Below are positions 10,656-40,661 of a stretch of 46,030 nucleotides of DNA, one piece after another (the first letter of the stretch is position 1; the number at the start of each line of letters is the position of its first letter). The stretch is from Pseudomonadota bacterium (GTDB lineage Bacteria > Pseudomonadota > Alphaproteobacteria > Rhizobiales > CAJQND01), in the NCBI GenBank assembly GCA_039030315.1, contig JBCCEL010000003.1, forward strand, positions 1-46,030, given 5' to 3'. The position numbers and the translations under genes were made by a program. The notes below the pieces were generated by a model. The model was given only the letters and a program-made list of their open reading frames with translations. It was not told the DNA's origin and made no database searches.

Positions 10656-10712
10656 CTCGCATCTCCCTTGATCTGTTTGGCGCGAAATCTAGCAGATGTG
10701 GAGCGGAACGCC

Positions 10713-14777: not shown

Positions 14778-14782
14778 GTACA

Positions 14783-16042: not shown

Positions 16043-16061
16043 CGCGCCACTGCCTCCGGTT

Positions 16062-17309: not shown

Positions 17310-17502
17310 GGATAGGCTCTCCGTCGGAAGGGGCCGGTGCGGTACAGGAAAACCGCCCGCCGGGCAAGGGCAGCCGGTCACGTTCGACAGGGCTGAGAAG
17401 GAAAACGGACGGGGAGCCGCAGCAAAGCGCCAAACCCGGCCAATCCGATCATCATCTGCCCGCCCCGAGCCCTTGTGCGCGCTCGGCTATCCGGCAACAG
17501 TT

Positions 17503-17529
17503 TTCCGCTTCGCGCTAGAAGCGGTCATT
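17503..17529 (+). repeat. Short palindromic repeat unit, outer left flank of the EPS island
   Basis: TTCCGCTTC-GCGCTA-GAAGCGGTCATT hairpin; related unit in opposite orientation at 37752-37775. Confidence 0.5.
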
Positions 17530-17589
17530 GGCGAAACGGTGAGTTTGGGGGTTTCAACGGAAGCCCTGATGAACCTTCGAACGGGGACT

Positions 17590-17608
17590 AAGTGCCAACA
17601 GCGGACAT
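17590..17608 (+). repeat. 19-bp inverted repeat, left copy
   Basis: AAGTGCCAACAGCGGACAT, exact reverse complement of 37714-37732. Confidence 0.85.
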
Positions 17609-17683
17609 CGAATTTGTCCTGTTGGGCTGAGGATCGCTGGCTTGAATGCGGACAAGCCACTCAAGCTTGCCCGCACCCGGCGT

Positions 17684-19498
17684 TTAGATGATCAAGGTGT
17701 CGGCGTCGAAGTATCCTTCGGCAGTCACGTCGAACACATCCTGCAGAACGACCACGTCCGTGAACGGGTTTCCATCCTGACCAAGATTGACCGAAACCGT
17801 TGTGCCACGGTCTCCCTGCGTGAACATCACCAGTTGATCCAGCTCCAGGGAACTGTCCAGCCCAAGTCCTGAGAAGTCCAGGACATCGGCGGTGCCGAAG
17901 TCCGCGATCCTGTCTGTCGACACTGCGCCCAGCTCGTTCAGGACATCGTCGGAGGCCCAGACGAACGTGTCGGCGCCGAGACCGCCGAACATCTTGTCGT
18001 TGCCGAAACCGCCGGAGATGATGTCGTTGCCCGTGCCGGCCGACAGGTAGTCATTGCCGAGACCGCCTGAAAGGACGTCATTGCCGGAACCGCCATAAAC
18101 ACGGTCGTTGTGCTCGCCGCCATGGACGATGTCATCGCCGGAACCGCCGACGACGCGATCCTGGCCGCTGCCGCCATACAGCTCGTCATTGCCGGAGTGA
18201 CCGTTCAGCGTATCGGCTCCGGATTCGCCGTCAATACGATCATTGCCGCTATTGCCGTTGAGCACGTCGTCGCCGCTCCCGCCGGTGAGAACGTCATCGC
18301 CGGAATTGCCGCTGAGCTCGTCATTACCGGAGCCGCCGCTCAAGGTATCCGCCCCTGAGCCCGCGGAGATGACGTCATCCCCGCCATCGCCGTGCAACTC
18401 GTCGTCGCCTGAGCCGCCGGTGATGGTGTCTGCGCCATCGCCTCCGGAGGCATAGTCGTGGCCGGAGTTGCCGGTGATGATGTCATTGCCTGAGTTTCCG
18501 GAGATCCGGTCATCACCGGAGTTCCCGGCCAGCGTGTCGTTGCCGTCGCCGCCCTGGATGATGTCATCTCCGCTGATCCCGTGGATTTCATCATCGCCGA
18601 TGCCGCCGTAGAGGATGTCGTCATCCGGCAGATTGCCGGTTCCATTGCTCTGCGGAAGAAGGGCGACCGTGTTCTGCTGGCCGATCTCGACCCGGATGAT
18701 GGTGTCGTCGTAGTCATTGTCGCCACCGCCATAGAGATCCTCGAAACCGATCAGCAGTTCGCCGGTGACGGTGCTGGCGCGGGACACCACGTGGGAGTAC
18801 TGGTCCGGGTTCGGGGCGTAATTGTCGTCGGCGGAGGCCTGGGAGTGGAAGATGCCGTAACCGTACTGGCTGCGGATATGCACTTCCTCGTTCGGACCAT
18901 CTCCGACCCACCACAGTTCGACCAATTGATCGCCGATGTTCCCGGGCTGCCCATCGGGCGTACGGAACTCGTAGTGGCCGGTATCGGCCGAAAGTGCTTC
19001 CCGGTTGAGATACCCTTTGCCATAGCCGTTCGAGACCACGAAAAACCCGAGCTGGGTCCCGTCGGCCACATCGAACGACGTCTGGCTCTGGTTCGGCACC
19101 AGATCGCCGCCGCTGCCGGCCTTTGACGCATTGGGGAACAGGATCTTGACATTACCAATGTTTCCGTCGGCAGAAATCTCGTAAACGCCGAGAGCGTTGC
19201 GGAAACCTGCGCCTTCATCGACGAAGGTGACCTTCGCCGTTGTCGCCTGCTGGATCACCAGTTCAGACATGTCGATATAGGCCGGCTTGCCGTTGCCATA
19301 GATGATGTCGTCGCCGCCCTGGCCGTAGATGAGGTCGTTGCCGGCGCCGCCATAGACCTCATCGTTGCCGCTGAGGGCGATGATCGTATCGTCGCCGCCG
19401 TAGCCGGCAAGGACTTCGGATCGTCCTGTGCCCCGCAGGCTGTCGTCCCCGCCTGTCCCGAGGACAGGCGAGATATTCCATTGCGTATCCACGCTCAT
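17684..19498 (-). CDS. RTX Ca2+-binding repeat protein with DUF4114-like domain (probable type I secretion substrate)
   Basis: Many GGxGxDxLx nonapeptides; TFVDEGAGFRNALGVY...GFEDLYGGGDNDYDD; C-terminal ADTFVW...DRIADF...DVLDFS; no Sec signal. Confidence 0.85.
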   Translation of the reverse strand: MSVDTQWNISPVLGTGGDDSLRGTGRSEVLAGYGGDDTIIALSGNDEVYGGAGNDLIYGQGGDDIIYGNGKPAYIDMSELVIQQATTAKVTFVDEGAGFRNALGVYEISADGNIGNVKILFPNASKAGSGGDLVPNQSQTSFDVADGTQLGFFVVSNGYGKGYLNREALSADTGHYEFRTPDGQPGNIGDQLVELWWVGDGPNEEVHIRSQYGYGIFHSQASADDNYAPNPDQYSHVVSRASTVTGELLIGFEDLYGGGDNDYDDTIIRVEIGQQNTVALLPQSNGTGNLPDDDILYGGIGDDEIHGISGDDIIQGGDGNDTLAGNSGDDRISGNSGNDIITGNSGHDYASGGDGADTITGGSGDDELHGDGGDDVISAGSGADTLSGGSGNDELSGNSGDDVLTGGSGDDVLNGNSGNDRIDGESGADTLNGHSGNDELYGGSGQDRVVGGSGDDIVHGGEHNDRVYGGSGNDVLSGGLGNDYLSAGTGNDIISGGFGNDKMFGGLGADTFVWASDDVLNELGAVSTDRIADFGTADVLDFSGLGLDSSLELDQLVMFTQGDRGTTVSVNLGQDGNPFTDVVVLQDVFDVTAEGYFDADTLII

Positions 19499-19534
19499 GG
19501 GAAATTCCTTCTTGGAGTTCGAGTTGGAGTGGAG

Positions 19535-20938
19535 TTACCAGCCGATGCCCTGGTAGCCAGGCTGCACCGGGAGGTCTTTGAAGAGCCGCACGAGGTCGAT
19601 GACTTTGACATCGCCGCCGCGGCGTCTAAGGGCTTCGCGGTACTGGTCCGAAGCGTGGGTCACCACGACCAGCTCCGCTGCGTCGAGCACGTCCTCGACG
19701 TCATTGCTCAGCATGCCTGGCAGCGCGTCCACCGTCGGCTTCAGATGGGGACAGACGCTGCTGACATAGGAGAACTGATCTGAAATCCGGGTCTCGGGGG
19801 TGATCGCCTCGTCATGTGCCGAAACCTCATAGCCTTCGCCCAGAAGCTGGTTCAGAACTTCCAGGATGGGGCTCTCGCGCAGGTCGTCCGTGCCGCGTTT
19901 GAAGGCGAGGCCGAGGAAGCCGACTTTCCTTGCGCCACTGCCGCGCACCATCTCGACAGCGTCGGCTATCTGCGTCTCGTTGGATTTGCCGAGGCTGTCG
20001 ATCAGCGGCACGTTGACGTCCAGCTCACCGGCGAGATGGGCGACCGCACGCACTTCTTTCGGCAGGCAGGAGCCGCCATAGGCAAAACCGGGCTTCAGAT
20101 AATAGGGCGACAGGTTCAGTTTCTGATCCTGCACGAATATGTTCATGACGTCGTGGCTGTCGATGCCGAGCGGCTTGCAGATGCGGCCGATCTCGTTGGC
20201 GAAGCAGACCTTGGTGGCGTGCCAGACATTGTCGGCGTACTTGACCATCTCCGCAGCTTCGATCGTCGTCAGCAACGGCGCTTCGTCGACCGGACGATAG
20301 ATGTTCGCCACAACGCGGGCCGTGTAGTCGTCGCTTGCACCGATGACGGTCTTGGGCGGGGCGCGGAAGTCTTCGATCGCGGTACCTTCACGCAGGAATT
20401 CCGGGTTGAAGCAGACCCCGAAATCGCGGCCCATCGTCTTGCCGGAGGCTGCCTCGATTTCCGGCACCATCACGTTCAGGGTCGTGCCGGGCGGAATCGA
20501 ACACCGCATGACGATGATGTGATGTTCGTATTTCAGGGCCAGAGCCTGTCCGATGGCACGAGCCGACTTGATGATGGCAGTGTAGTCGCAGCCGCCGCCT
20601 TCCTTGGTGGGCGTGCCGACCGAGACGAAAGTGACGTCGGTATCAACGACAGCTGCGATGAGATCGCCCGTCGTGCTGATGAGATGGTTGTCGACGCCTT
20701 CGCCGAGCAGATCGGTCAGGCCGGCCTCATGGATGGGAGACTTGCCGCTTCCGACGGCCGCGCGTTTGACGGGATCGATGTCGCAGCCGACGACGCGGTG
20801 CCCGAGACTGGAGAGGCAGGCGGTCGAGACGGCACCGACATAGCCCAGTCCAACCACGCTGATGGCCGGCAGGTTCTTGACGAGTTTGAGGTGAGCGGGT
20901 GTGGCCGTGGCCTGGTTGATTTGAGCGAGAGCGTTCAT
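19535..20938 (-). CDS. algD: GDP-mannose 6-dehydrogenase
   Basis: GLGYVG, FNPEFLREG, KLNLSPYYLKPGFAYGGSCLPKE, GLAFKRGTDDLRESP, terminal YQGIGW; alg8/alg44/algA context. Confidence 0.9.
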   Translation of the reverse strand: MNALAQINQATATPAHLKLVKNLPAISVVGLGYVGAVSTACLSSLGHRVVGCDIDPVKRAAVGSGKSPIHEAGLTDLLGEGVDNHLISTTGDLIAAVVDTDVTFVSVGTPTKEGGGCDYTAIIKSARAIGQALALKYEHHIIVMRCSIPPGTTLNVMVPEIEAASGKTMGRDFGVCFNPEFLREGTAIEDFRAPPKTVIGASDDYTARVVANIYRPVDEAPLLTTIEAAEMVKYADNVWHATKVCFANEIGRICKPLGIDSHDVMNIFVQDQKLNLSPYYLKPGFAYGGSCLPKEVRAVAHLAGELDVNVPLIDSLGKSNETQIADAVEMVRGSGARKVGFLGLAFKRGTDDLRESPILEVLNQLLGEGYEVSAHDEAITPETRISDQFSYVSSVCPHLKPTVDALPGMLSNDVEDVLDAAELVVVTHASDQYREALRRRGGDVKVIDLVRLFKDLPVQPGYQGIGW

Positions 20939-20979
20939 TTTCGAGAGCCTTCTGTTTGGGTTCAGCTGCTCTCACCAAC

Positions 20980-20994
20980 TCAACTGTCATGCCA
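20980..20994 (-). promoter_or_regulatory. Sigma-54 promoter of algD-RTX (variant -12)
   Basis: TGGCAT-GACAG-TTGA (GA rather than GC at -12). Confidence 0.6.
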
Positions 20995-21022
20995 ATCCCG
21001 GCATGAAAATAAAATCATTTAA

Positions 21023-21035
21023 TTTCAAAAGATTA
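21023..21035. promoter_or_regulatory. Putative IHF site
   Basis: TTTCAAAAGATTA, one mismatch to WATCAANNNNTTR, next to an A/T tract, between promoter and enhancer motifs. Confidence 0.55.
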
Positions 21036-21067
21036 GCTAGGGATCATCGGATTTTTCCACTGATCGT

Positions 21068-21135
21068 TTTTCATTGCAGAAACCGCCGTTTTCAAAATCG
21101 AAATGCCACCAATCCGGCGCTTTCGAAACTGAAAA
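21068..21135. promoter_or_regulatory. Putative enhancer (UAS) cluster A
   Basis: TTTTCAttgCAGAAA 21068-82, TTTTCAaaaTCGAAA 21089-103, TTTCGAaacTGAAAA 21121-35. Confidence 0.65.
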
Positions 21136-21138
21136 TGC

Positions 21139-23088
21139 TCAAGCGCCGGACGCCCGTCGGATTTCGAAAAGTGGGTTGCTGCCGAGAAAGCTCTGCAGGT
21201 TGCCGAAAGACCAGGATTTCGCAGTCTCACATTTGCCGTCAGCGCAGTGTGCGAGTTTCACGGTCAGCTGGAACGGTGCTGCCGGATAGAAGAGATTTGC
21301 GTAGGCCAGGAGTTGATGGCCAGAGGATGCTCCGGGAATCAATCTGGAATAGCGCTCCCGCAGTTTGGCTGTCGCGAAAGCATCCCATCCGGCGCCGGGC
21401 ATCCAGCGGCGCGCGCGCGGTCCCTTGCCGTCCAGGTCCCGGGCCAGGATCGCGCCCTGGTCCAGCAGACGGTCCAGCGTGGTCTGCAATGACCTGCGCT
21501 GCCGGGGGGCCAGGGCATGCCGGATGGCGCCGAGGCCCATCAGGCTGAGGCCGGCGTGGTTGACGTCTTCGACACGCCTTGGATTGGGTTCCGGTTTCCG
21601 GACGGGGCGGAGTTTGGAGATCCGGTCCGCCTTCTGCCAGCCCCGATAGTACCGGGGAACCCAATATCTCCAGAGCGCCCCTCGCGCGTCAGCGGACCAG
21701 GTTTGCACGAACGCATCCGCAATTCGGGATGCGCGGGCATTGAGGTGCGGACGTTTTTCGGCCGTGCCAACCCGGTCGAGCACCGTTGCCCAGGTCAGAT
21801 GCCAGTTCCAGGGCGCCCATATGCCATCGAAGCGGAACGGCGCTCCGTACTGGATGCGGTAGTGCCCCGTCCGCTCGTCGTAATGGCGTTCGTACGATCT
21901 GATGAGGCGCGAAGCGTTCCTCTGAACCTTGTGTTGAAGCCCCGGCGTGCATCTTTCGCCCAGGCGTTCACATGCCCGCAGCAGCGCGCCCGATATCATG
22001 GCCTGATTGATCTGAAACGACACCGGGCTGCGCCGGTCGATCGAGTAGATACGGGAGGCCCAGGCAGCAGCGGGATTGAACTCGCCGCCGATCCCCAGGT
22101 CCCTGTTCCGAACGGACAAGGTGTTGCGCATCGCCAGGGTGGCGAGATCGGCGAACACGCGGTGACCGGTCTTCTGATAAAGCGTCGCCAGGGTCAGGGT
22201 CCGATAGGACTGTGTCCAGCTTTGTTTGCCCGCTTCATCGGATGCAAGCGATGCCGGTTCGCCAAGTCCGCGCAAGAGCACACCGTTGATGGCGTGGAAG
22301 GCCATCTTCGCGGCGGGCGTTCCGGAGATCGAGAGGATCGCAGCTCCGTGTTGTCCCTTGAGGAGCCTGGGCGCCAGCGTCTCATCGGCTTCGGTCGCAC
22401 GGAGCTTCGAGACCTCACCGGACTTCATGTCCAGCTCGAGGAGGTCACTCCCCCGTTTGGGATCGCAATAGGCCTGAAGAAGAATGGAACGGCGCGTTGC
22501 CTTGGTGCCCAGAACTGCGCATCCCTCATAGGAGCCCAGCAGCATGCCATCCCGTGCGACGCGGTTGCCCTTGCGGGAATATCTGTAGAAGCGCGTGCGC
22601 TGCGCGCGCTTGTCGAACACGGACACGATCAATTCGTGCCGCCGGAAAACGAGGACACGGACGACCGCGAGCCGGGGCCACTCCAGGACTGGCTCGCCAT
22701 TATGGATCAGCTCGACCCTGGATTTGGGGCCTTTGGTTGTGCGGATGTAGACAAAGTCGCCGCCGGGACCGAAGCGGAAGCCGCCGATCCGCGACACGTC
22801 ATCGATGTCCTTGCCGTCAACGACGACCGTATCGCCGAACGTCACGGTCGGCCGGAACGCGCCCTTCTCCCAGAAGGACCGCAGCTCATAACCGCCCTTG
22901 CGCCCGACGCTGTTCAGCCCCCGCATGGAGACGCCGTTTTGGCTCGCAAGTCCTGTCGCCGTGTTGAAGGAGAAGCCCTTGCCGCTTTGCTCGATAATGT
23001 AACCGCCGCCCGCAAACGCCGGCGATGCGCCAACCAAAGCAGCGAGGGCGCAAGCTGCCGCTTGCGCCCGGTTTGGTGAGATCGACAT
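21139..23088 (-). CDS. Exported protein of unknown function (beta-rich N-terminus, aromatic/basic helical C-terminus)
   Basis: ATG 23088 just after the algI stop; signal peptide ending ASPAFA; last gene of the acetylation operon. Confidence 0.75.
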   Translation of the reverse strand: MSISPNRAQAAACALAALVGASPAFAGGGYIIEQSGKGFSFNTATGLASQNGVSMRGLNSVGRKGGYELRSFWEKGAFRPTVTFGDTVVVDGKDIDDVSRIGGFRFGPGGDFVYIRTTKGPKSRVELIHNGEPVLEWPRLAVVRVLVFRRHELIVSVFDKRAQRTRFYRYSRKGNRVARDGMLLGSYEGCAVLGTKATRRSILLQAYCDPKRGSDLLELDMKSGEVSKLRATEADETLAPRLLKGQHGAAILSISGTPAAKMAFHAINGVLLRGLGEPASLASDEAGKQSWTQSYRTLTLATLYQKTGHRVFADLATLAMRNTLSVRNRDLGIGGEFNPAAAWASRIYSIDRRSPVSFQINQAMISGALLRACERLGERCTPGLQHKVQRNASRLIRSYERHYDERTGHYRIQYGAPFRFDGIWAPWNWHLTWATVLDRVGTAEKRPHLNARASRIADAFVQTWSADARGALWRYWVPRYYRGWQKADRISKLRPVRKPEPNPRRVEDVNHAGLSLMGLGAIRHALAPRQRRSLQTTLDRLLDQGAILARDLDGKGPRARRWMPGAGWDAFATAKLRERYSRLIPGASSGHQLLAYANLFYPAAPFQLTVKLAHCADGKCETAKSWSFGNLQSFLGSNPLFEIRRASGA

Positions 23089-23102
23089 GGATGAGATCCG
23101 TT

Positions 23103-24596
23103 CTAGAAGTTGAAGTAGATGAATTCGGTCAGGTCCCCGAGGCGGTAGACCTGCAGCAGGGCCACCGCGAAAACACCGCTCACCGCCATTGCCCAGCGCC
23201 GGCTCGGGCGCCAGCTCACGGCTGCCGACCGGCGGATATGCTGCGCCGCGTCGATGACGGGGCGGTACTTGCGGACGAGTTCGATGGAGTTCGGGGCGTA
23301 GAAGACAACCAGCGCCAGAGCGATGAACTGCACCCACGGCAGGCCGGTTTGCGCCAGTACGCCCGACCAGGCCTTCACATCGTAGAGCTCAGTGAAGCCC
23401 AGCATACCGGACATGACGGCCAGCGCCCCATCCAGAGTCTCCGCCCGGAACGGCACCCAGGCGAAGATGACCGCAAGCATGGTGAGACCCTGAGCAAGGC
23501 TCGAGGAAAGTGCGCGGGTGAGCGGAGAGACGTCCTTCCGGCGCGGAAACACTGCCGACCAGGCATGGTTGATTGCAAGGTAAACACCGTGCAGTGCGCC
23601 CCAGAGGACGAAGTTCCAGCTCGCTCCGTGCCAGAGACCGCCAAGCACCATGGTCGCGAAAAGGTTGAGATAACGGCGGAACCTGCCGTGGCGATTGCCG
23701 CCGAGCGGTATGTAGAGATAGTCACGCAGGAAGCGGGAGAGCGTGATGTGCCAGCGGCGCCAGAAGTCGACAATGCTGGTGGCCTTGTAGGGCGAGTTGA
23801 AGTTGATCGGCAGGCGGATGCCGAACATGCGCGCCAGCCCGAGGGCCATGTCGCAATAGCCGGAGAAATCGAAATAGATCTGGAACGTATAGGCCAGCGC
23901 GCCGATCCAGGCGGCCTCGGCCGGCACGGCGTGGCCCGCATCCGCCAGGCTGAAGACCGATGTTGCCAGCGGCGCGATGCCGTCGGCCAGAACGATCTTC
24001 TTGAAGAGCCCGATGGCGAACAGAGTCCCGCCAACTGCCAGGTTCAGGAACAGTTTGCTCTGAAAGACCTTCAGGGTGAACTGCGGGATCGTGTCCTTCT
24101 GCAGCACGATCGGTCCGGCGATCAACTGCGGGAAGAACACCACGAACAGGCAGTACCTGGAGAAGTCGCACTCGCTGATCTCCCCGCGCCATGTGTCGCA
24201 AAGGAACGATATCTGCTGGAACGTGAAGAACGAGATGGCAAGGGGTAGGATGATGCCAAGTGCCGGGAGGTCAGCACCCGGCAGCAGGTTGATATTGCCG
24301 ATAAGGAAGTCGGCATATTTGAAATAGGCAAGCGTGGCGAGGTTCCCGGCGATACCGGCTGCCAACACCGGCTTTGACCTGGTCCGCAGGATCATCCGGT
24401 GCAGGCCGAAGTTCGCCAGCACCGAACCGATGAGCAGCAGCAGGTGGATCGGGCTCCACCAGGCGTAGAACGCCAGAGAAGCGGCGATCAGCCACCAGAT
24501 GATGGCACTTTCCCGGCCCCAGGCGCGCAAGGCGAGATAGCCCAGCAGCACCGGCGGCAGAAACAGGTAGATGAATTCAAGGGAACTGAAGACCAT
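23103..24596 (-). CDS. algI: MBOAT O-acetyltransferase (AlgI-like)
   Basis: MVFSSLEF, PLAISFFTFQQIS, FFPQLIAGPI, QIYFDFSGYCDMA, FWRRWHITLS, GLWHGA, FIYFNF. Confidence 0.9.
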   Translation of the reverse strand: MVFSSLEFIYLFLPPVLLGYLALRAWGRESAIIWWLIAASLAFYAWWSPIHLLLLIGSVLANFGLHRMILRTRSKPVLAAGIAGNLATLAYFKYADFLIGNINLLPGADLPALGIILPLAISFFTFQQISFLCDTWRGEISECDFSRYCLFVVFFPQLIAGPIVLQKDTIPQFTLKVFQSKLFLNLAVGGTLFAIGLFKKIVLADGIAPLATSVFSLADAGHAVPAEAAWIGALAYTFQIYFDFSGYCDMALGLARMFGIRLPINFNSPYKATSIVDFWRRWHITLSRFLRDYLYIPLGGNRHGRFRRYLNLFATMVLGGLWHGASWNFVLWGALHGVYLAINHAWSAVFPRRKDVSPLTRALSSSLAQGLTMLAVIFAWVPFRAETLDGALAVMSGMLGFTELYDVKAWSGVLAQTGLPWVQFIALALVVFYAPNSIELVRKYRPVIDAAQHIRRSAAVSWRPSRRWAMAVSGVFAVALLQVYRLGDLTEFIYFNF

Positions 24597-24610
24597 GGTT
24601 CTGCCTCGTC

Positions 24611-25798
24611 TCAAGTCTGGGAGTTGTTTTCGCCGGCCTGCTTGAGCAGGGCCTGCAGGAGGGTCTTGGAGCCGGTGTGGCCAAGCGAACTGCCCCTGCG
24701 GGCGAGTTTCAGGGCTCCGGCCATGTCTTTCGGCGCAAGCTTGCCTTCGGCACAGATGCGGGCGAGCTCTTCCATGGCTCCGGCATGGGAAGCCTTCACA
24801 CCCTTCTGGAACCAGGCAACGGCGCCGTCTTTCTTCAGGCCGTGCAGTTGCTTGAGATGCAGCCGGCCAAGTTTGGTCATTGCCCCGCCATGTCCGGCTT
24901 CCGCGGCGCGCTTGAGCCAGCCGATTGCCTCATCGGCACTCTTCGGTCCGGCTTTATCGACCAAAAGCAGGTTCGCCAGATCGTGCATCGCCCCGGGGTT
25001 ACCGAGATGACTGGCGTGGCGGAACCAGTAGAAAGCTCTTTCTCTCGAGCGCTGGACGAATTCGCCATCGCGGTAAAGCCGCCCCAGGGTCTTGGCCGGG
25101 CTGCCGGAGCCGGAGCGGGCTTTCGTCTTCAGGGCATTGATTGCGCGGGCCGCCAAGGCCCGGGCCCGTTCCGGATCCTTCCTGACGCCGTGATGGCCCT
25201 TCAGCAGGATACGGGCATACTTCAGAGAAACCGCCTCAAAGCCGGCCCTCGCAGCCCCTTCGTAGTGATACAGCGCGCGGCTCTGATCGGCGTCCACGCC
25301 GATGCCGCGCGTAAAGTGGCCAGCCAGCTGCACGTGTGCCTTCTCATAACCCCAGTCCAGCGCCTTCAGGAACCACTCGACAGCGATGCGGTTGCAATCC
25401 GGTCCCGATGATCTCTGATAGAGCCGGCCCAGTTCGAAGGCCGCTTCACCGCGCAGGGAAAACTTGAACTGAACGGCGCGCAGAAGCGCCATGCGGCCCT
25501 TCTCCAGATCGGGCGACACGCCCCAGCCGCGGGACAGTATTTTTCCGTGATGAAACAGCGCGTGCGGATAGCCCTGATGGGCATAGCGTTCGATGATCTC
25601 GGCTGCCTCGGTCCACTTGCCCAGCTTCTGCAGGCCGCGGGCCTGGTTCAGGTGTTCGGTGACGAGCGGATCAGTGGGCGGTTCCTTGGCAAGGTCCGGA
25701 AGTCCGCGCCAAAAGAACACGGTTGCGCAGAGGGCGCACAGGACCACGAAGGGCGCGACATTCACGAGAAACAGCTGAGGGTTTTCAGGCCGGGTCAT
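24611..25798 (-). CDS. Sel1-like repeat protein (AlgK-like scaffold)
   Basis: N-terminal TM; Sel1 repeats (WFLKALDWG, WFRHASHLG, WLKRAAEAG); alg context. Confidence 0.8.
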   Translation of the reverse strand: MTRPENPQLFLVNVAPFVVLCALCATVFFWRGLPDLAKEPPTDPLVTEHLNQARGLQKLGKWTEAAEIIERYAHQGYPHALFHHGKILSRGWGVSPDLEKGRMALLRAVQFKFSLRGEAAFELGRLYQRSSGPDCNRIAVEWFLKALDWGYEKAHVQLAGHFTRGIGVDADQSRALYHYEGAARAGFEAVSLKYARILLKGHHGVRKDPERARALAARAINALKTKARSGSGSPAKTLGRLYRDGEFVQRSRERAFYWFRHASHLGNPGAMHDLANLLLVDKAGPKSADEAIGWLKRAAEAGHGGAMTKLGRLHLKQLHGLKKDGAVAWFQKGVKASHAGAMEELARICAEGKLAPKDMAGALKLARRGSSLGHTGSKTLLQALLKQAGENNSQT

Positions 25799-27077: not shown

Positions 27078-27117
27078 TTCAAGCTTGCTTCGCAGTGGGT
27101 GGTCTGCACCTCCTCCC

Positions 27118-27132
27118 GCAAGCGGCATGCCA
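27118..27132 (-). promoter_or_regulatory. Sigma-54 promoter of the SGNH-Sel1-algI-unknown operon
   Basis: TGGCAT-GCCGC-TTGC, canonical -24/-12 spacing. Confidence 0.8.
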
Positions 27133-27159
27133 TTGTTAGCAAACGTATTTATTTAATAA

Positions 27160-27172
27160 AAACAATAACTTA
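27160..27172. promoter_or_regulatory. Putative IHF site
   Basis: AAACAATAACTTA, one mismatch to consensus, preceded by an A/T tract. Confidence 0.55.
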
Positions 27173-27193
27173 CCAGATCATCACTACGCGCCC

Positions 27194-27250
27194 TTTCGAT
27201 ATTGAAAACCACCGGTTTTCAATATCGAAATCGCGGTTTCAATATCCGGC
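27194..27250. promoter_or_regulatory. Putative enhancer (UAS) cluster B
   Basis: TTTCGAtatTGAAAA 27194-208 and TTTTCAataTCGAAA 27216-230 (17-bp perfect inverted repeat, 3-nt spacer); partial third copy over the alg8 stop. Confidence 0.7.
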
Positions 27251-30419: not shown

Positions 30420-30449
30420 TTGGCAGGTCTCCATGTCGCCCGAACAGGA

Positions 30450-30464
30450 GCAACCGGCATGCCA
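30450..30464 (-). promoter_or_regulatory. Sigma-54 promoter of alg44-alg8
   Basis: TGGCAT-GCCGG-TTGC(T), canonical. Confidence 0.8.
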
Positions 30465-30513
30465 GCGAATCCGGCCTCTTTCTCACCGGAAATGGGAAGA
30501 CGGGGCCTCCAGA

Positions 30514-30551
30514 TTTCGAAATTCGAAATCCGGTCTTTTCGAATTTTGGAA
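30514..30551. promoter_or_regulatory. Putative enhancer (UAS) cluster C, shared by divergent promoters
   Basis: TTTCGAaatTCGAAA 30514-28 (perfect arms) and TTTCGAattTTGGAA 30537-51. Confidence 0.65.
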
Positions 30552-30663
30552 TCCCGGGCGAAACCGGCATGGCGCAAAACGAGCGTGCCAATCTGCAAAA
30601 TCTCCCGGAATTCTGCGGATCACGCCCATGCCGGCACCCGTGACACTCACGCCATGCCAGTTC

Positions 30664-30678
30664 TGGCCAATCCCTTGC
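30664..30678 (+). promoter_or_regulatory. Sigma-54 promoter of algA-pmm
   Basis: TGGCCA-ATCCC-TTGC (GG-N10-GC). Confidence 0.65.
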
Positions 30679-30732
30679 GACTGGAGGGCCAAGCGCGGCG
30701 TGCCATCGCCGCCCGGTCCAAAGGAGATGCAA

Positions 30733-32199
30733 ATGACCTCAAACAAAATCACCCCGATCATTCTTGCCGGCGGTGCCGGCACCCGTCTGTGGCCGGTGTC
30801 GCGCGAAGAAAGCCCGAAGCAGTTCTGCCGGCTGCTCGACGGACAAAGCCTGTTCCAGGCGACAGCAAAGCGTGTCTCCGACCCGGCACTGTTCAACGCT
30901 CCGATCATCGTCACCGGCGCCCAATACGCCGGCCTGGCCGAACAGCAGCTTGCAGAGTACGGACTGGAAGCCTCTGCGATCGTCTGCGAACCCATGGGCC
31001 GCGACACCGCACCCGCGATCGCCGCCGCTCTGGCTGCCGCGCGTCCGGGTCCGGTGGCGGAAAACTATCTTGTGCTGCCGTCCGACCATGCCATTGAAGA
31101 CGACGAAGCCTTGAAGACTGCCATCCGGACGGGCCGCGATCTCATCCGGCACAGCCGGCATCTCGTGACCTTCGGCATCGCGCCCAGCCGGCCCGACACA
31201 GGCTTCGGATACATCCGGGCCGAACGCGACGAACTCCGGCCGGGTGTCCATGCGGTCAGCCGCTTCATCGAGAAGCCGGATGCCGCTCGGGCGGCGAACC
31301 TCATCCGCGAGGCGGGCACATCCTGGAACGCCGGCATCTTCCTGTTCAACGGTCGCGACATGCTCGATGAGCTGGAGCGGCATGCCCCCGAGCTTCTCTA
31401 CATGGTCAGGAAGAGCCTCGCGAACGGCACCATGTCCGGCAGCAAGGTCTTCCCCGATGCAGCCGCTTTCGCGAAGGCGCCGAAGCTTTCCATCGACTAC
31501 GCCGTCATGGAGCACACCGAAAGAGCGGCCGTAGTTCCGGTCGATCCCGGCTGGAGCGATCTCGGCGCCTGGTCGGCCATCTGGGAGCGCGGGGAAAGCG
31601 ATGTGGTCGGCAATGTTCTCGAAGGTGATGCCATCGCGGTCAACAGCACCGGCTCGCTCGTCCGCACCGACGGGCCGACAGTGGCCATTGCCGGCGTGGA
31701 TGACCTGGTGGTGGTCGCCAACCGCGACGCCGTGCTTGTGGCCAGGAAGGACGATGCACAGTCGGTCAAGACACTGGTTGAAACCATGAAGGCGGAAGAT
31801 CGCGTCGAGCAGAAGCGTCACGCCGGCGAGGACCGTCCGTGGGGCCGGTTCGATTCCATCGACCGCGGCGAGCATCACCAGGTCAAGCGTATCAGGGTGC
31901 ATCCCGGTGGCCGTCTGTCGCTGCAGTATCACCATCACCGTTCGGAACACTGGGTCGTGGTGTCCGGCACTGCCCAGGTGACTGTCGGCGACAATGTCAT
32001 GGCTCTTGGTCCTTGCGAGCAGGTCTTCATCCCGCAGGGCGAGGTGCACCGCCTGGAAAACCTCGGCTCCGAACCGGTTGAAATCATTGAGGTTCAGTAC
32101 GGAGACTACCTTGGCGAAGACGACATCGTGCGTGTTGAGGATGTCTACGGCCGCGAAGCCGTTCCCGCCGCACTCGACGAAAATCTCGCAGCCGCGTAA
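30733..32199 (+). CDS. algA: Mannose-1-phosphate guanylyltransferase / mannose-6-phosphate isomerase (AlgA/ManC)
   Basis: ILAGGAGTRLWPVSR, PKQF, FIEKP, SIDYAVME, WSDLG, cupin RPWG...SLQYHHHRSEHW; AAGGAG RBS. Confidence 0.93.
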   Translation: MTSNKITPIILAGGAGTRLWPVSREESPKQFCRLLDGQSLFQATAKRVSDPALFNAPIIVTGAQYAGLAEQQLAEYGLEASAIVCEPMGRDTAPAIAAALAAARPGPVAENYLVLPSDHAIEDDEALKTAIRTGRDLIRHSRHLVTFGIAPSRPDTGFGYIRAERDELRPGVHAVSRFIEKPDAARAANLIREAGTSWNAGIFLFNGRDMLDELERHAPELLYMVRKSLANGTMSGSKVFPDAAAFAKAPKLSIDYAVMEHTERAAVVPVDPGWSDLGAWSAIWERGESDVVGNVLEGDAIAVNSTGSLVRTDGPTVAIAGVDDLVVVANRDAVLVARKDDAQSVKTLVETMKAEDRVEQKRHAGEDRPWGRFDSIDRGEHHQVKRIRVHPGGRLSLQYHHHRSEHWVVVSGTAQVTVGDNVMALGPCEQVFIPQGEVHRLENLGSEPVEIIEVQYGDYLGEDDIVRVEDVYGREAVPAALDENLAAA

Positions 32200-32208
32200 G
32201 GACACATC

Positions 32209-32961
32209 ATGGACCGCATGTATCTCTTCGACGTCGATGGCACGCTGACCGAACCCCGTCAGCCCATCGACCCCGATTTTGCCCAGTTCTTCGAGCGCTT
32301 TTGCAAATCGCACCCGGTCTATCTCGTCTCCGGCAGCGATCTGCCCAAGCTGGAAGAGCAGTTGCCGAGATCAATCCTCGCTCACGCAAAAGGTGTTTTC
32401 ACCTGTTCGGCGGCAGAACTCTGGGTCGATGGCAAGGCCAGCTATCAGCTCGATCATGAGTTCCCGAAGGAACTTGTGGAAGCCCTTGAGGGTTTTGTCG
32501 ATCTCAGCCAGTATCCGCGCCGTTTCGGCAATCATATCGAGTTCCGGACCGGCATGATCAATTTCAGTGTCGTTGGCCGGAACGCCGAGCACAGCGACCG
32601 GCAGACCTATTTCGCCTGGGACCAGCAGGAGGGCGAACGCAAGGAATTCATCCGCCGCTTCGTTCAGACCTACACGGACTACGAGGCCTCGGCGGGTGGC
32701 GAGATCAGCATCGATATTGTGCCGAAGGGCTGGAACAAGTCCCGGGCACTGGACGTTCTCAAGCAGGATTTTCCGGATGCAACGATCACCTTCTTCGGGG
32801 ACCGCATGGCGCCGGGCGGAAACGACTATCCATTGGCAGAAGCCCTGAAGGCAGATTCCCCCCGGCATCAGGCCGTTTCGGTCGGCACGTTCTACGAAAC
32901 CTGGCGGCTGCTCAGCGCCTTATCCGCACCAGGACATGAGGTTTTCCGGCAGGCGTCCTGA
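32209..32961 (+). CDS. HAD-IIB phosphomannomutase, eukaryote (PMM2/Sec53) type
   Basis: LFDVDGTLT, VSGSD, IEFRTGMINFSVVGR, GGEISID, PKGWNK, FFGD...GGNDY. Confidence 0.85.
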   Translation: MDRMYLFDVDGTLTEPRQPIDPDFAQFFERFCKSHPVYLVSGSDLPKLEEQLPRSILAHAKGVFTCSAAELWVDGKASYQLDHEFPKELVEALEGFVDLSQYPRRFGNHIEFRTGMINFSVVGRNAEHSDRQTYFAWDQQEGERKEFIRRFVQTYTDYEASAGGEISIDIVPKGWNKSRALDVLKQDFPDATITFFGDRMAPGGNDYPLAEALKADSPRHQAVSVGTFYETWRLLSALSAPGHEVFRQAS

Positions 32962-32989
32962 GCTCCTGTTTCCTCACAGCACAGGCACT

Positions 32990-33016
32990 TGGCGGGCAAT
33001 TTGCCCGCCATTTTTT
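32990..33016 (+). terminator. Rho-independent terminator of algA-pmm
   Basis: TGGCGGGCAA-T-TTGCCCGCCA followed by TTTTTT. Confidence 0.75.
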
Positions 33017-34472
33017 ACTGGTCGTCGCGCGTCCAGTCTTCACGCTTGCGGTAGAGGGTCGAGGGGCTCATCTTCAGCACCTTGGAGGCCTTCGGGACGC
33101 TGCCCCCGCAATAGTCGAAAGTGGCCATGACAACGTCCCGTTCCAGCTCGGCAAACGTCCGCCCGAGCACCACGCGCACGATCTTGTTGCCTTCGCCATC
33201 CACACCGGTCGACGCCGCCGCGGGGCGCTGCGCCGGAGCTGCGGTTTCTTGAGCTATGGGCGCAGCTGCGGACGGTTTCGCCGTGCTGGAGGAGCGTGAC
33301 GGGCCACCGATGCGGATCATCTCATCCGTCAGCACTTCGCCATCGTTGAGAACAACCGCATTCCGTATGACGTTCTGCAACTCGCGGACGTTGCCGGGCC
33401 AGCCATGGGCCAGAAGCATATCCTCGGCCTCAACGGAGAACGCCTGAAAAGTCTTACCCTCTTCCTGCGAGAAGCTTTCGAGAAAGGCCTGGCCGATTTC
33501 CAGGACGTCGGCATCGCGTTCCCTGAGCGGTGGCAGGTGGATCGGCAATACATGGAGACGGTAGTAGAGATCTTCGCGGAACCGGCCCTGCTCAACCTCT
33601 TCGTGCGGGTTCCGATTGGTGGCGCAGATCACGCGCACATCGACCGGCACTACCTTGTCGCTGCCCACCCTCTGAACCGTGCCGGTCTGCAGGAAGCGCA
33701 GCAGTTTGGTCTGCAGATCGACATCCATCTCGCAGATCTCATCGAGAAACAGCGTCCCGCCATCGGCCGCCGCCGCCGCACCCTCACGGTCTCCGGTGGC
33801 GCCGGTGAACGCCCCTTTGACGTGTCCGAAAATCTCGGACTCGATCAGGTCCTTCGGAATGGCGGCACAGTTCAGCGGCACGAAAGGCTTGCCGGCACGG
33901 GGTCCCGACTTGTGGATCGCCTCGGCGCAGACCTCCTTGCCTGTCCCGCTTTCCCCGGTGATGAAAACGGTCGCCTTGGAGCGGGCCACGTTCTCGATCA
34001 TTTTGAAAACGCCAAGCATGACCGGTGACTTGCCGATGAACCCGTGGAAATTGCCGTCAGCATAGTCATTGCGGATCTCCGCAATGGCCTCATGCAGCTG
34101 CTCGCGTTCGCAGGCATTGCGGATGGTCGTGATCATCCGCTCTTCGGCGGCGGGCTTGACGATGAAGTCATACGCGCCGGCCCGCATGGCATCGACGGCG
34201 GTCTTGATGGAGCCGCTCCCGGTCACCACCACGACGGTGACGGAGATCTTCTGCTCCTCCACATGCTTGAGGATGTCCATCCCGTTGGCATCCGGAAGGT
34301 TCAGATCCAGCAGCATCGCCTGAAACTTGCCGTCTTCGAGCTCAGCCAAGGCGGCCTTGCCGGTGTCGACATGCACGCAGTCGAACCCCGCGCGCTCCAG
34401 CCAGTCCTTGTAGACAACGGCGAGCGAGAAGGCGTCTTCGACCAGCAGGACTTTCTGTTTTCCCCGGGGCAT
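33015..34472 (-). CDS. Sigma-54-dependent response regulator (REC-AAA+-HTH), LuxO-like
   Basis: REC LLDLNLPD; GFIGKS; GESGTGKEVCAEAIH; NCAAIPKDLIESEIFGHVKGAFTGA; HTH SPSTLYRK. Confidence 0.9.
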   Translation of the reverse strand: MPRGKQKVLLVEDAFSLAVVYKDWLERAGFDCVHVDTGKAALAELEDGKFQAMLLDLNLPDANGMDILKHVEEQKISVTVVVVTGSGSIKTAVDAMRAGAYDFIVKPAAEERMITTIRNACEREQLHEAIAEIRNDYADGNFHGFIGKSPVMLGVFKMIENVARSKATVFITGESGTGKEVCAEAIHKSGPRAGKPFVPLNCAAIPKDLIESEIFGHVKGAFTGATGDREGAAAAADGGTLFLDEICEMDVDLQTKLLRFLQTGTVQRVGSDKVVPVDVRVICATNRNPHEEVEQGRFREDLYYRLHVLPIHLPPLRERDADVLEIGQAFLESFSQEEGKTFQAFSVEAEDMLLAHGWPGNVRELQNVIRNAVVLNDGEVLTDEMIRIGGPSRSSSTAKPSAAAPIAQETAAPAQRPAAASTGVDGEGNKIVRVVLGRTFAELERDVVMATFDYCGGSVPKASKVLKMSPSTLYRKREDWTRDDQ

Positions 34473-34496
34473 GCCCCTCTCCAGGACCGTTTAGGT

Positions 34497-37400
34497 TCAA
34501 TCTTTGCGTGAATTCATACCGTTCAGCGCGCCCAAAGTTAGCTCGCAAAGCTTTCCCAGTTCTTGTGCTTTTGCAAGGGCGCGCTCCGGCTTCTCGCCGC
34601 GGGCATCCGTGTTCACCCGCTGCGCCAGCGCCTGAAGCGCGCTCGCTCCGAACGTACCGGCAATGCCCTTGATCAGGTGGCTGGACTTCTCAAGTATCTG
34701 TATGTCTTCGCTCTTGCCGGCCTCGATCACTCTCTGCCCATGAGCATCAAGCTCGGATGCGAAGGCCGTCAGTGCCTTCTCCGCCGTGGCCGGGTTCATG
34801 CCGCCAATGACCGTGTTGAAGACGCTCATGTCGAAATGATCGTTGTCCCGGTGGGAGTCATCTTGCGAGCCCCGTCTCTGTATCTTCTCCGGATCCGCCT
34901 GCCGGGAGATCGCCCGGGCCAGCTCAAGTCTGGAGACAGGCTTGGCGACGAACTCGTTCATTCCCGCGGCAAGAGCTGTCTGGCGGTCCTCATCCAGCGC
35001 GTAAGCCGTCAGCGCAATGATTGGAATCCGGGCGACCTTGCCATCCAGACCGCGGATTTCCTTCGTGGCCTCAAGCCCGTCCATTTCCGGCATGGACACA
35101 TCCATCAGGACAACGTCATAGGGCCGGTTCTGGACCGCCTCGACGGCCTCCAGCCCATTGCCCACCACGTCGACGAGACAGCCGAGCCGTTCCAGCATGT
35201 TCCCGATCACCAGCTGGTTGGTCGTGTTGTCCTCGGCCAGGAGCACGCGAAGCTCTCCGACGGCAGGCAAATCCTGTTCGCTTTCCAGTTCGTCGATGGG
35301 AACCGCATCGGCGGCGTCGGCAATCTTCAGCGGAATGTCGAACCAGAACGTACTGCCCTTGCCGGGCTTGCTCTCAAAATCGATCTTACCGCCCATGTTC
35401 AGTACGAGGGACTTGGAGATGGCGAGCCCCAGACCGGTCCCGCCAAACTTCCGGGAATAGGAGGCATCCAGCATCGAGAATTCGGCGAACAACTCGCCAT
35501 GGTGCTCTTCCGGGATGCCGATACCAGTGTCCTTGACGGAAAAGCGAAGCGTCGAGACACCGTCCTTGCGGGCCCGCTGGCGGACCGAGATCCCGACCTG
35601 ACCGCCTTCGGAGAACTTGATGGCGTTCCAGGTAAGATTGAGCAGGATCTGCCGGATACGGCCCGCATCGCCGGTCACCGCATCCGGAACGGTCTTGCCG
35701 ATGTCTATGGAAAGCTCGACGGAGTTCTCCTTCGCCCGGTGGGAGACAAGGCTCTCCACCCCGTTGATCAGCGGATCGAGCAGAAACACGCCCTCGTCAA
35801 GATCGAGCCGGCCGGCCTCCAGTTTGGAGAAGTCGAGGATGTCGTTGATGATCGTCAGCAACGCCTTGCCGGAGACCCGCGCGGTCCGGATCAGCCGTTG
35901 TTGCTCTTTGCGGTCCGGTTCATCGCTGAGCAGCCCCAGAATCCCGAGAACCCCGTTCAACGGCGTGCGGATCTCGTGGGACATCATGGCCAGGAAGCTG
36001 GCTTTTGCCCGGTTGGCGGTTTCGGCGCGCTCCTTCTCCAGGAGAATCTGCTCCTCTGCCGCCTTCTTCTCGGTGATGTCCCGCGCATAGCCGAGGAAGA
36101 TGGTTCCATCGGGACCTTCGGCCTGCTGGATCGCAAGTTCGATCATGAACTCGTGGCCTTCCGCATGCAGGGCCTCGATCTCGATGCGCTGGCCGATCAG
36201 CGGGCCCTCGCCAGTGTTGAGAAAATGCTCGATGGCCGTTTCGTGCGCGTCACGGTAGCGATGCGGGATGATGAACTCGGACATCTTGCGTCCGACAACA
36301 TCGGCACGCATGAAACCGAAGATCTGTTCGGCCGCCGGGTTGAATTCCTTGATCTCCGCATGGTCGTCAATCACGATGATCGCGTCGAGTGCGGAGCGGA
36401 CGGTGGTGCTGAGCTGTTCCTCGCTGCGCTGGAGATTGGCCTCGCGTTCCTTCAACTCGGTGATATCGACCCGGAAGCCGACCGTGCCCCCATCGTCAGT
36501 GCCGCGCTCGATGATGCGCAGCCACTGCCCGTTGCCGAGATGCTGTTCGACCATGCCCGATTTGGCGCGATGCGCTTCAAGACGGCCGGCGACCCATTCA
36601 TCCAGAGTCTGATCCTTGAGCTCGTATTGCCCCGCCTCAGCCCCCTTCCGGATGATCTGTTCGAAGGTATTGCCGGGAATGATGTAATCGGCGCTGGCCG
36701 AATAGATCTTCTTGTAGCGCTCGTTGCAGACAACCAGCCGGTCGTCCTTGTCGTAGAGCACGAAACCATCCGGGAGAGATTCGATCGCATCGGTCAGCCG
36801 CTTGTTGCTTGCTTCAGCGGCTTGGTTGGCCTTTTCGAGGGCCTCGTTCTGCTCCTGCGCAGAGGACGCGAGTGTCTGCACCTCCTCATGCACCCGGCGG
36901 TACCGCAGAATGAGCTGGGCCAGCAGCGCCGTGGTCATCAGGAACACCAGCACCAGGAATGCGGAAATCTGCTGCAGGCTTCCCGGCATGAAAGCGCCCG
37001 CCGGACTGATGGTTTGCGATACCACCAGCGCGCCGCGCACATCGCCGACCTTCCAGTCCTTCCTCGGAGAGTCGCTCCGCGCATTGTGGCAGGCGACGCA
37101 GCTTTCACTCATCACGATGGGCGTTGCATATTCGAACGTCTCCTTGCCACCGGCCGATGCCGGGCCGAAGAATTCCACCTCGCCGTTCTTCACCAGCGCC
37201 GCCAGCGCCTTCCGGTCGAACACCGAGAGCGTCCGCTCCTTCCTGAGCGGGAAAGGATAGTCGCTGATCAGACGGAAATTCGCCCGGGCGCCGCTCGCCT
37301 CGAATTCCTTGGAGAGTTCGATCGACAAGGTCGCCGGCAGCGGTATGGCGTTCGCGATATTGCGGAAGTCATGCGTGACAGTCAGGCCCTCGAGGTCCTG

Positions 37401-37598
37401 CACCCGCGCCACGATCTCCTTGGAATAGAAGCTCTGAACCGTCGCCACCAGCTGCGCATTGCTCCGCGCCGACTCCAGCAAAATCTGCTGGCGCACCTCC
37501 GTTGTGTGCTTCTGGACGAGGTAGAAAATGACACCGCCCGACAGCAGCAGGAAAGCCACAAGCGCCCAGAAAATCTTGTTGAACCCGATGCTCTTCAT
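34497..37598 (-). CDS. Hybrid sensor kinase: periplasmic heme-c (DUF3365-like), PAS, FixL-like PAS, HisKA, HATPase, REC, Hpt
   Basis: CVACH between two TMs; FNPAAEQIFG...RDAH; MSHEIRTP; GGTGLGL; LMDVSMP; SHLIKGIAGTFGA. Confidence 0.9.
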   Translation of the reverse strand: MKSIGFNKIFWALVAFLLLSGGVIFYLVQKHTTEVRQQILLESARSNAQLVATVQSFYSKEIVARVQDLEGLTVTHDFRNIANAIPLPATLSIELSKEFEASGARANFRLISDYPFPLRKERTLSVFDRKALAALVKNGEVEFFGPASAGGKETFEYATPIVMSESCVACHNARSDSPRKDWKVGDVRGALVVSQTISPAGAFMPGSLQQISAFLVLVFLMTTALLAQLILRYRRVHEEVQTLASSAQEQNEALEKANQAAEASNKRLTDAIESLPDGFVLYDKDDRLVVCNERYKKIYSASADYIIPGNTFEQIIRKGAEAGQYELKDQTLDEWVAGRLEAHRAKSGMVEQHLGNGQWLRIIERGTDDGGTVGFRVDITELKEREANLQRSEEQLSTTVRSALDAIIVIDDHAEIKEFNPAAEQIFGFMRADVVGRKMSEFIIPHRYRDAHETAIEHFLNTGEGPLIGQRIEIEALHAEGHEFMIELAIQQAEGPDGTIFLGYARDITEKKAAEEQILLEKERAETANRAKASFLAMMSHEIRTPLNGVLGILGLLSDEPDRKEQQRLIRTARVSGKALLTIINDILDFSKLEAGRLDLDEGVFLLDPLINGVESLVSHRAKENSVELSIDIGKTVPDAVTGDAGRIRQILLNLTWNAIKFSEGGQVGISVRQRARKDGVSTLRFSVKDTGIGIPEEHHGELFAEFSMLDASYSRKFGGTGLGLAISKSLVLNMGGKIDFESKPGKGSTFWFDIPLKIADAADAVPIDELESEQDLPAVGELRVLLAEDNTTNQLVIGNMLERLGCLVDVVGNGLEAVEAVQNRPYDVVLMDVSMPEMDGLEATKEIRGLDGKVARIPIIALTAYALDEDRQTALAAGMNEFVAKPVSRLELARAISRQADPEKIQRRGSQDDSHRDNDHFDMSVFNTVIGGMNPATAEKALTAFASELDAHGQRVIEAGKSEDIQILEKSSHLIKGIAGTFGASALQALAQRVNTDARGEKPERALAKAQELGKLCELTLGALNGMNSRKD

Positions 37599-37713
37599 GC
37601 CAGGCCCCAAATCCAGTAGTTCCGCCGCACAATCGTCCGGTTAACTGAATCGTTCAACCTGCTTGCACATTCAGGTACCACAGCCAAGCACAAGCCAAGG
37701 AGCCGGCGCGGTC

Positions 37714-37732
37714 ATGTCCGCTGTTGGCACTT
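37714..37732 (-). repeat. 19-bp inverted repeat, right copy
   Basis: ATGTCCGCTGTTGGCACTT, exact reverse complement of 17590-17608. Confidence 0.85.
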
Positions 37733-37751
37733 TTACTCCTTTAGCCCGATC

Positions 37752-37775
37752 GCAGCTTTCGGGTCTAAAGCGGAA
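37752..37775 (-). repeat. Short palindromic repeat unit, outer right flank of the EPS island
   Basis: Minus strand TTCCGCTTT-AGACCCG-AAAGCTGC, related to 17503-17529. Confidence 0.5.
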
Positions 37776-37916
37776 GGAAAATCCCGATTGCACATGTCGC
37801 AACAGGGGCACTTTCTGCCTTCTCTCGGCGGCGGTGAGCCCTGCCTCTTTCGGAGAGTGTGGAGTGGAGTGTGTGTTAGGTTCCGGGCACAGCCCCCTTC
37901 CGACAGGCACCTTTTC

Positions 37917-40525: not shown

Positions 40526-40661
40526 GTTCGCATCCTGGGCGGAAATTGCGCTCCCGCCGGAATTTTCTGTCTGAGTACAGAAGGTTACGCCTTGATTGGC
40601 CGGAAACTAGGCAGAACGCACGAAAAGGTCAAGCTTCGTTCCACAAGAAAAAAATCATTAA

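Follow-up and report, generated by a model that had tools for sequence, protein, structure and literature searches.

The question raised by this locus is what a perfect 19-bp inverted repeat is doing at the two edges of a polysaccharide gene cluster. The window, that is, the whole stretch of 46,030 nt analysed here, is the entire contig C3 (GenBank JBCCEL010000003.1) of a metagenome-assembled genome (MAG) from the alphaproteobacterial order Rhizobiales (G000; 6,174,183 bases in 600 contigs, fragmented and 88% complete). It carries a putative exopolysaccharide (EPS) cluster of ~20 kb (17684–37610, mostly on the minus strand), and an earlier note on this DNA had proposed that the repeats bracketing the cluster are the ends or recombination sites of a cargo module mobilized in trans. 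We lean towards a different explanation, namely that the arms are relic intergenic units, similar to repetitive extragenic palindromes (REPs) and bacterial interspersed mosaic elements (BIMEs), at the edges of the cluster, that the left unit probably acts in cis and that the inverted symmetry is a by-product. The arms belong to a defined repeat family, are unique in their genome and lack the 5′ arm of the canonical hairpin, and the hallmarks of transposition are absent.

The left arm, AAGTGCCAACAGCGGACAT, lies at 17590–17608 on the plus strand, and the right arm, its exact reverse complement (the same 19-mer on the minus strand), at 37714–37732; 20,105 nt separate the two, which match at 19/19 bases. 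The pair described in the earlier note is thus confirmed, and none of 100 dinucleotide-preserving shuffles of the window contained two or more matches to the 19-mer. Both arms are intergenic, in spacers of ~300 nt between called genes. When the two spacers were compared by blastn-short, the 19-mer block gave E = 3e-7 and the rest lay within noise, and a MAFFT alignment of the two revealed no conserved block besides the 19-mer. The left arm is located 75 nt past the stop (17684) of an RTX-repeat gene and 208 nt ahead of the start (17381) of an Hsp70-like gene. The right arm precedes the start of a histidine-kinase gene by 103 nt (if TTG at 37610) or 115 nt (if ATG at 37598), and that of a RidA gene (37918) by 185 nt. 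A genome-wide count of copies, which the earlier note had suggested, returned only these two in G000 at 0, 1 or 2 mismatches; a third match, unrelated, first appears at 3 mismatches.

Outside this genome the 19-mer is far from unique. The exact sequence was scanned for in the genome_contigs collection (one genome per species, 596 Gb) and was found in 38 stretches of public genomes, against ~4 expected by chance (596 Gb × 2/4^19). Going by record titles, 34/38 are alphaproteobacterial; hosts include Pseudolabrys, Beijerinckiaceae, Hyphomicrobiales, Methyloceanibacter and many soil MAGs, from soil and sediment. Alignment of the loci on the motif places the 19-mer in a hairpin, ATGTCCGCT-AAGTGCCAAC-AGCGGACAT, referred to here as type 3, of which it forms the loop and the 3′ arm. 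One or two further hairpins typically precede the type-3 unit, with a spacer of ~17–20 nt; these (ATGTCCGCTTTGGGTCAAAAGCGGACAT and ATGTCCGCTTTACCCCNGAAAGCGGACAT) share the stem ATGTCCGCT/AGCGGACAT and differ in their loops. In the 38-locus alignment the sequence past ...GGACAT differs at every locus, and thus the array is polar, with the 19-mer as its terminus. The 5′ arm, scored as present where at least 7/9 bases matched ATGTCCGCT in the 9 nt preceding the 19-mer, is found in 27/38 loci, 23 of which have another family unit within 130 nt on the 5′ side; it is missing in 11/38, of which 10 also lack such an upstream unit.

The statement in the earlier note that GTCCGCT...AGCGGAC units are dispersed in alphaproteobacteria proved right. 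In addition to the 38 stretches, five long-read MAGs (G401–G405) contain 32, 48, 51, 120 and 160 perfect-stem units, while the reversed pattern, used as a control, gave 0 in all five. Among the 38 loci, 22 are flanked on each side by an ORF of 150 aa or more; in 16 of these the ORF next to the ACAT end points towards the unit, so that arrays usually follow gene ends. Rfam contains no match to the window or to five canonical array loci. The Y1/RAYT transposase family (PF01797) has no match in G000, G401, G402 or G403, and two copies in G404. In a sample of 251 genomes of the same order as the window, canonical units were present in only seven, at 1–2 copies and often near contig ends. Segments duplicated next to arrays in two MAGs contain ordinary genes and no transposases.

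Two occurrences outside these arrays deserve description in their own right. In the genome G036, from the same order as the window but another family, an armless variant (GGGACTAAGTGCCAACAACGGA) lies ~100 nt upstream of arsR at both of two paralogous arsR-arsC-acr3 upstream regions (L012, G036:C24 4300–4765, and L002/L011, G036:C50), one of which has an extra ~90 nt including a 10-bp hairpin. In a Klebsiella pneumoniae plasmid (NZ_CP031801.1; locus L017), a near-canonical type-3 hairpin with both arms (25/28 bases, ~2993–3020 of the locus) lies 92 nt past the stop of an IS110-family transposase gene. IS110-family elements are known to target REP sequences; a search for relatives of this transposase returned none in G000 or the 38 repeat loci.

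How do the arms in the window relate to this family? At neither border does the 19-mer form part of a complete palindrome. The 9 nt preceding it are ACGGGGACT on the left (4/9 matches to ATGTCCGCT) and AAGGAGTAA on the right (2/9). Profiles of the three hairpin types were built for nhmmer from family units in the 38 loci, and the type-3 profile, run against the whole of G000, scored the left arm at E = 0.001, the right arm at 0.041 and the next match at 0.97; the two arms are thus its only significant matches in the genome. A repeat family would be expected to have many copies in a host genome, and G000 has these two type-3 matches only. The 19-mer was rejected as a dispersed repeat of G000 on its copy number (two at up to 2 mismatches), on sub-motifs that are not over-represented and on the lack of canonical units. 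Within this 88% complete assembly no canonical type-1, type-2 or type-3 unit was found, and the family pattern GTCCGCTTT...AAAGCGGAC had 0 matches in the fragmented contigs. The looser pattern GTCCGCT...AGCGGAC had one, a hairpin with an unrelated loop.

Each border also carries an outer hairpin, in mirrored orientation and at a different distance from the arm (63 nt on the left, 22 nt on the right), just as the earlier note had described. The left outer hairpin, TTCCGCTTCGCGCTAGAAGCGGTC (17503–17526), reads TTCCGCTTC-GCGCTA-GAAGCGGTC and is within two substitutions of the generic stem GTCYGCT...AGCRGAC. This loose pattern has 966 matches in 6.17 Mb, which corresponds to a ~2% chance in 130 nt, and the type-1 profile did not detect the left outer hairpin. 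The right outer hairpin, GCTTTCGGGTCTAAAGCGGAA (37755–37775, minus strand TTCCGCTTTAGACCCGAAAGC), is a putative degenerate type-2 unit (canonical form GTCCGCTTTACCCCCGAAAGC), detected by the type-2 profile at 37755–37774 (E = 7.5e-4 when only the borders are searched, 0.057 for the window and 7.6 for the genome). Judged by its sequence, the 19-mer is a member of the GTCCGCT...AGCGGAC family, and the outer hairpins are predicted to be further, degenerate units of it. A candidate third piece on the right, ATGTCGCAACAGGGGCACTT (37794–37813, plus strand, from direct reading of the sequence), has ends as in the reverse complement of the 19-mer and an inverted central hexamer; it could represent a third unit of the array at the right border that has been rearranged. 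At each border, then, a short degenerate array appears to lie outside the cluster with its type-3 end facing inwards.

This arrangement suggests the following history. The arms would be truncated units of a REP/BIME-like intergenic hairpin family that is abundant in Alphaproteobacteria of soil and sediment, in which arrays combine up to three hairpin types and end in a canonical type-3 hairpin, usually just after the 3′ end of a gene. G000 would have kept relics only, one short degenerate array in each spacer bordering the cluster, with the type-3 end towards the cluster. Any two members of a family that face in opposite directions constitute an inverted repeat, and the perfect 19-bp symmetry would thus follow from family membership and carry no transposon signature. 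The units would not move the island, and the closeness of the pair would reflect a shared history of the flanking DNA.

The left unit would be in the usual place of the family, 75 nt past a gene stop and, like the majority (16/22) elsewhere, past a converging gene end; there it appears to form a new local hairpin. Its partner is GTCCTGTTGGGC on the island side (17616–17627, plus strand), which pairs with CCAACAGCGGAC of the left arm, giving a hairpin 40–75 nt past the RTX-gene stop, behind a stronger hairpin with a 15-bp stem that immediately follows that stop (17644–17678, minus strand; terminator-like, lacking a U-run). In folds of 17560–17690 on both strands, the left-arm hairpin was present in the minimum free energy and centroid structures (z = −2.5 and −2.35), and local pairing of the right arm was no better than in shuffles (z = −0.9). 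Most likely the left unit would serve the RTX-gene transcript in cis, stabilizing its 3′ end or acting as an insulator.

Several observations weigh against this explanation. If two sites were placed at random in 6.17 Mb, the probability that they fall within 20 kb of each other is, by our arithmetic, ~0.0065; the closeness of the arms is therefore not random and requires a shared history. The two arms agree with one another at 19/19 bases and fit the family consensus over the same stretch, whereas both have lost the 5′ arm and the units next to them have degenerated. If decay had been purely neutral, the same 19 bases would not have been left intact in both places, a hint of either selection on the half-site or a common origin in the recent past. 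The right arm is flanked by two genes that start in divergent directions, a minority geometry in the family elsewhere (6/22 loci). The G036 sequence shares 26/27 bases with the left arm, including 11 outside the 19-mer, and given this 27-mer the armless variant appears to recur. In addition, no functional test of this repeat family was found in the literature.

Of the other explanations, the one that survives best, although we consider it unlikely, is that the arms are active or former recombination sites, through either a REP-mediated move or inversion or an enzyme acting in trans on the type-3 half-site. The two copies, the only ones in G000, bracket a single functional module, and the half-site is perfectly conserved where adjoining units have decayed. 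As in the terminal inverted repeats of a transposon, 19/19 bases agree. The bases immediately outside the arms (...GGGGACT and TTTACTCC...) contain no direct repeat and no target-site duplication, and Pfam scanning of 40 ORF translations from the window yielded no transposase, integrase or recombinase family, in agreement with the earlier note, and a RAYT gene was not found in G000. G000 has no further copy of the 'end', and hence neither other modules of this sort nor an autonomous partner. In each array the conserved part is the innermost one, with the remainder outside the arms, the reverse of what transposon tips show; furthermore, 19 bp is short for RecA-dependent exchange.

Comparison with four congeners (G002, G003, G005 and the 100% complete G004) bears on recombination in both directions. 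Homologues of the cluster, from RTX gene to kinase, are present in G005 and G002 (70–75% DNA and 58–86% protein identity, values similar to the 80–85% protein identity of neighbouring core genes), in another context; the cluster was not found in G004 or G003. The position of the cluster thus differs within the genus. In G005 the RTX end adjoins a tRNA 3′ fragment, a P4-type integrase and a VapE-like gene, and the kinase end adjoins a gene with no assigned product, an SDR gene and folE2. (In the G005 region L031, G005:C16 ~4200–9200, ARAGORN found no intact tRNA beside the P4-type integrase and VapE-like primase; the region is a small integrative element or its scar.) The synteny break between the window and G005/G002 falls inside the two spacers holding the arms, and at this divergence it is resolved no finer than these ~300-nt spacers. 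Compared with the four congeners the whole region is rearranged. Each of the four has an arginase-like gene immediately after carA, whereas in the window the arginase-like gene (5950) and carA are 33 kb apart and in opposite orientation (5950–11633 and 39317–41231), which indicates that the region underwent an inversion plus an insertion relative to the genus.

The borders of the cluster in G002 and G005 lack the 19-bp repeat; in G005 no inverted repeat is common to both borders, and the likeness to the borders in the window is limited to a 16-nt kinase-promoter block. The DNA specific to G000 extends from 11.6 to 39.3 kb, beyond the arms at 17.6–37.7 kb, and within it only the cluster has counterparts in the four congeners. 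The four congeners likewise lack the genes just outside the arms (WD40-caspase, TPR, Hsp70-like, RidA and one for a 290-aa protein), and the RidA and 290-aa genes have no DNA match in any of them. An orthologue of the Hsp70-like gene was absent from eight genomes of the same family, the best match elsewhere being in G035 (57% identity), where the two homologues of the flanks are separated by 7 kb that contains unrelated genes.

Among 13 metagenomic relatives of the cluster, none has an intergenic 19-mer (up to 4 mismatches) or a family unit, and the sole weak match (L085) is inside a gene. A metagenome scan for the left junction, GGACTAAGTGCCAACARCGGA, gave 0 matches. In X1, the only run that contains the stretch, short Logan contigs at ~7–10× were compared over 17101–37100, with the right arm outside; among the joints and loose ends listed, none falls at the left arm, a result that weighs neither for nor against inversion or excision. 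The repeat family named in the earlier note is real, but the inference of transposon ends and a cargo module found no support in the tests run: target-site duplication and other copies of the end are lacking, the repeat is absent from the congener borders and from all 13 metagenomic relatives, and the DNA missing from congeners extends beyond the arms. That note had made its proposal depend on the repeat being scarce and on synteny breakpoints coinciding with it; the repeat is indeed not abundant in G000, and the break with G005 and G002 does fall in the arm-holding spacers. A role of the arms in rearrangement therefore keeps some probability.

A tRNA-derived att site was also considered and rejected, as the window contains no tRNA.

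It is improbable, and somewhat more so than recombination, that the 19-mer is a protein-binding site, such as an operator or a nucleoid-protein site, that would co-regulate the two outward genes. Both copies present ATGTCCGCTGTTGGCACTT towards the flanking gene, 208 nt (Hsp70-like) and 185 nt (RidA) before the starts; the block of identity is sharply bounded within otherwise unrelated spacers, the half-site is conserved without its hairpin partner, and the near-identical 27-mer of G036 is ~100 nt upstream of arsR at two loci. The 19-mer, however, lacks internal dyad symmetry, the analysis yielded no candidate regulator, and the family unit elsewhere is mostly found after gene ends rather than before starts (16/22). 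Its TGGCAC resembles the −24 element of a sigma-54 promoter, but the −12 GC is missing, and the real sigma-54 promoters of the cluster and their palindromic upstream sites are different. As a sigma-54 promoter itself the 19-mer was rejected, since CCCC (left) or CTCC (right) stands where the −12 GC should be and canonical sites occur at 30449–30464 and 27117–27132.

Less probable again, and offered as speculation, is that the armless type-3 half-site, consisting of a loop and one arm, functions as a recognition site in its own right, and that an enzyme other than RAYT, acting in trans, takes half-sites that face inwards for the limits of a large cargo. On this reading, the 20-kb EPS-plus-regulator cassette would be a giant non-autonomous element derived from a REP-like repeat. 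This would account for the 19 bases spared twice, for the presence of only two copies and for the varying position of the cluster in congeners. Should the half-site indeed prove to be a recombination site, REP-like repeats would become connected with the mobility of large cargo. Pure coincidence between two unrelated sequences is very improbable, for although perfect 19-mer inverted pairs are expected across very many windows (~0.004 per 46-kb window by our arithmetic), both arms are intergenic, match a defined family found 38 times elsewhere against ~4 expected, have putative further family units beside them and were reproduced in 0/100 shuffles.

REP/BIME-like elements of this kind are already known; for this particular family no description was found in print, abstract-level literature searches having returned none for a GTCCGCT...AGCGGAC repeat with three loops. 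The enterobacterial REPs and BIMEs are repetitive extragenic palindromes and mosaics of these. Like them, the present family consists of short imperfect palindromes of ~26–29 nt, intergenic, in arrays with fixed spacers and polarity, mostly past gene 3′ ends and in tens to hundreds of copies per genome. It differs from them in sequence, in having three loop classes on one stem, in that a RAYT gene was not found in 3/4 repeat-rich genomes tested, and in that G000 holds two armless relics only. RIMEs (RIME1 and RIME2) are Rhizobium-specific intergenic mosaic elements, and the likeness to these mosaic palindromic intergenic elements of Rhizobiales is one of description rather than of compared sequence. 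With non-autonomous transposons bounded by terminal inverted repeats, and with cargo elements similar to miniature inverted-repeat transposable elements, the locus shares a perfect 19-bp inverted repeat around cargo that lacks a transposase; it differs in the absence of a target duplication and of a second element or autonomous partner, and in a conserved part that is not the outer tip. A parallel for inverted pairs is the REPIN-RAYT system of Pseudomonas (Bertels and Rainey; PMC5581495), in which pairs of inverted REP units are treated as non-autonomous DNA mobilized in trans. The two units of a REPIN, however, are only tens of bases from each other and fold into a single hairpin, as against the 20 kb that separate the arms here. 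REPINs are also accompanied by a Y1 transposase gene, present once and with units on its flanks, and a search of G000 returned no such gene.

The bracketed cluster, with products assigned by Pfam and NCBIfam, begins on the left with an RTX-repeat/DUF4114 protein (17684–19498, minus), followed on the same strand by an NDP-sugar dehydrogenase (19535–20938), a 732-aa protein with no assigned product (21139–23337), an MBOAT acyltransferase (23103–24614), a Sel1-repeat protein (24611–25804), a 447-aa protein with no assigned product (25785–27128), a family-2 glycosyltransferase (GT2 synthase; 27239–28858) and a PilZ+HlyD protein (28812–30434). ManC (30370–32199) and phosphomannomutase (PMM; 32209–32961) are encoded on the plus strand. 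A sigma-54-dependent response regulator, a LuxO/NtrC-like activator (33015–34472), and a hybrid histidine kinase (34497–37610), both on the minus strand, complete the region. It is predicted to be an Alg8/Alg44-type synthase-dependent EPS module with its own regulators, and alginate-like only, as none of the NCBIfam alginate equivalogs reaches its cut-off in the cluster.

A canonical sigma-54 −24/−12 promoter, TGGCATGCCGGTTGCT (30449–30464, minus), is located ahead of the PilZ+HlyD gene, and there is a second candidate, TGGCATGCCGCTTGCG, at 27117–27132. As the latter coincides in part with the start called for the 447-aa ORF, the call is probably in error. AT-rich palindromes upstream of the two promoters (~30510–30550 and 27189–27235) look like activator-binding sites. 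The cluster thus appears to carry a complete sigma-54 circuit, comprising hybrid kinase, activator, two promoters and upstream palindromes. GC content is flat (0.60–0.64) across the cluster and its flanks.

On the left, the Hsp70-like gene (439 aa; 16062–17381, minus) is the nearest member of a trio at 11835–17381 with a WD40+caspase protein (980 aa) and a TPR protein (484 aa), resembling a conflict or defence system; further out, a TIR-domain protein is encoded at 2626–3909, in a low-GC patch (0.476) at 2–4 kb. On the right, RidA (37918–38309, plus) is followed by the 290-aa protein and carA.

If the arms are indeed relic REP/BIME-like units, the finding would be an ordinary one for the island itself, and a caution for the search for genomic islands by means of inverted repeats. 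The side results are perhaps worth more: the repeat family itself, with three hairpin types on one stem in ordered arrays, at tens to over a hundred copies in long-read soil MAGs and with no RAYT gene found in three of the four such genomes tested, and a self-contained, sigma-54-controlled EPS module whose position varies between congeners.

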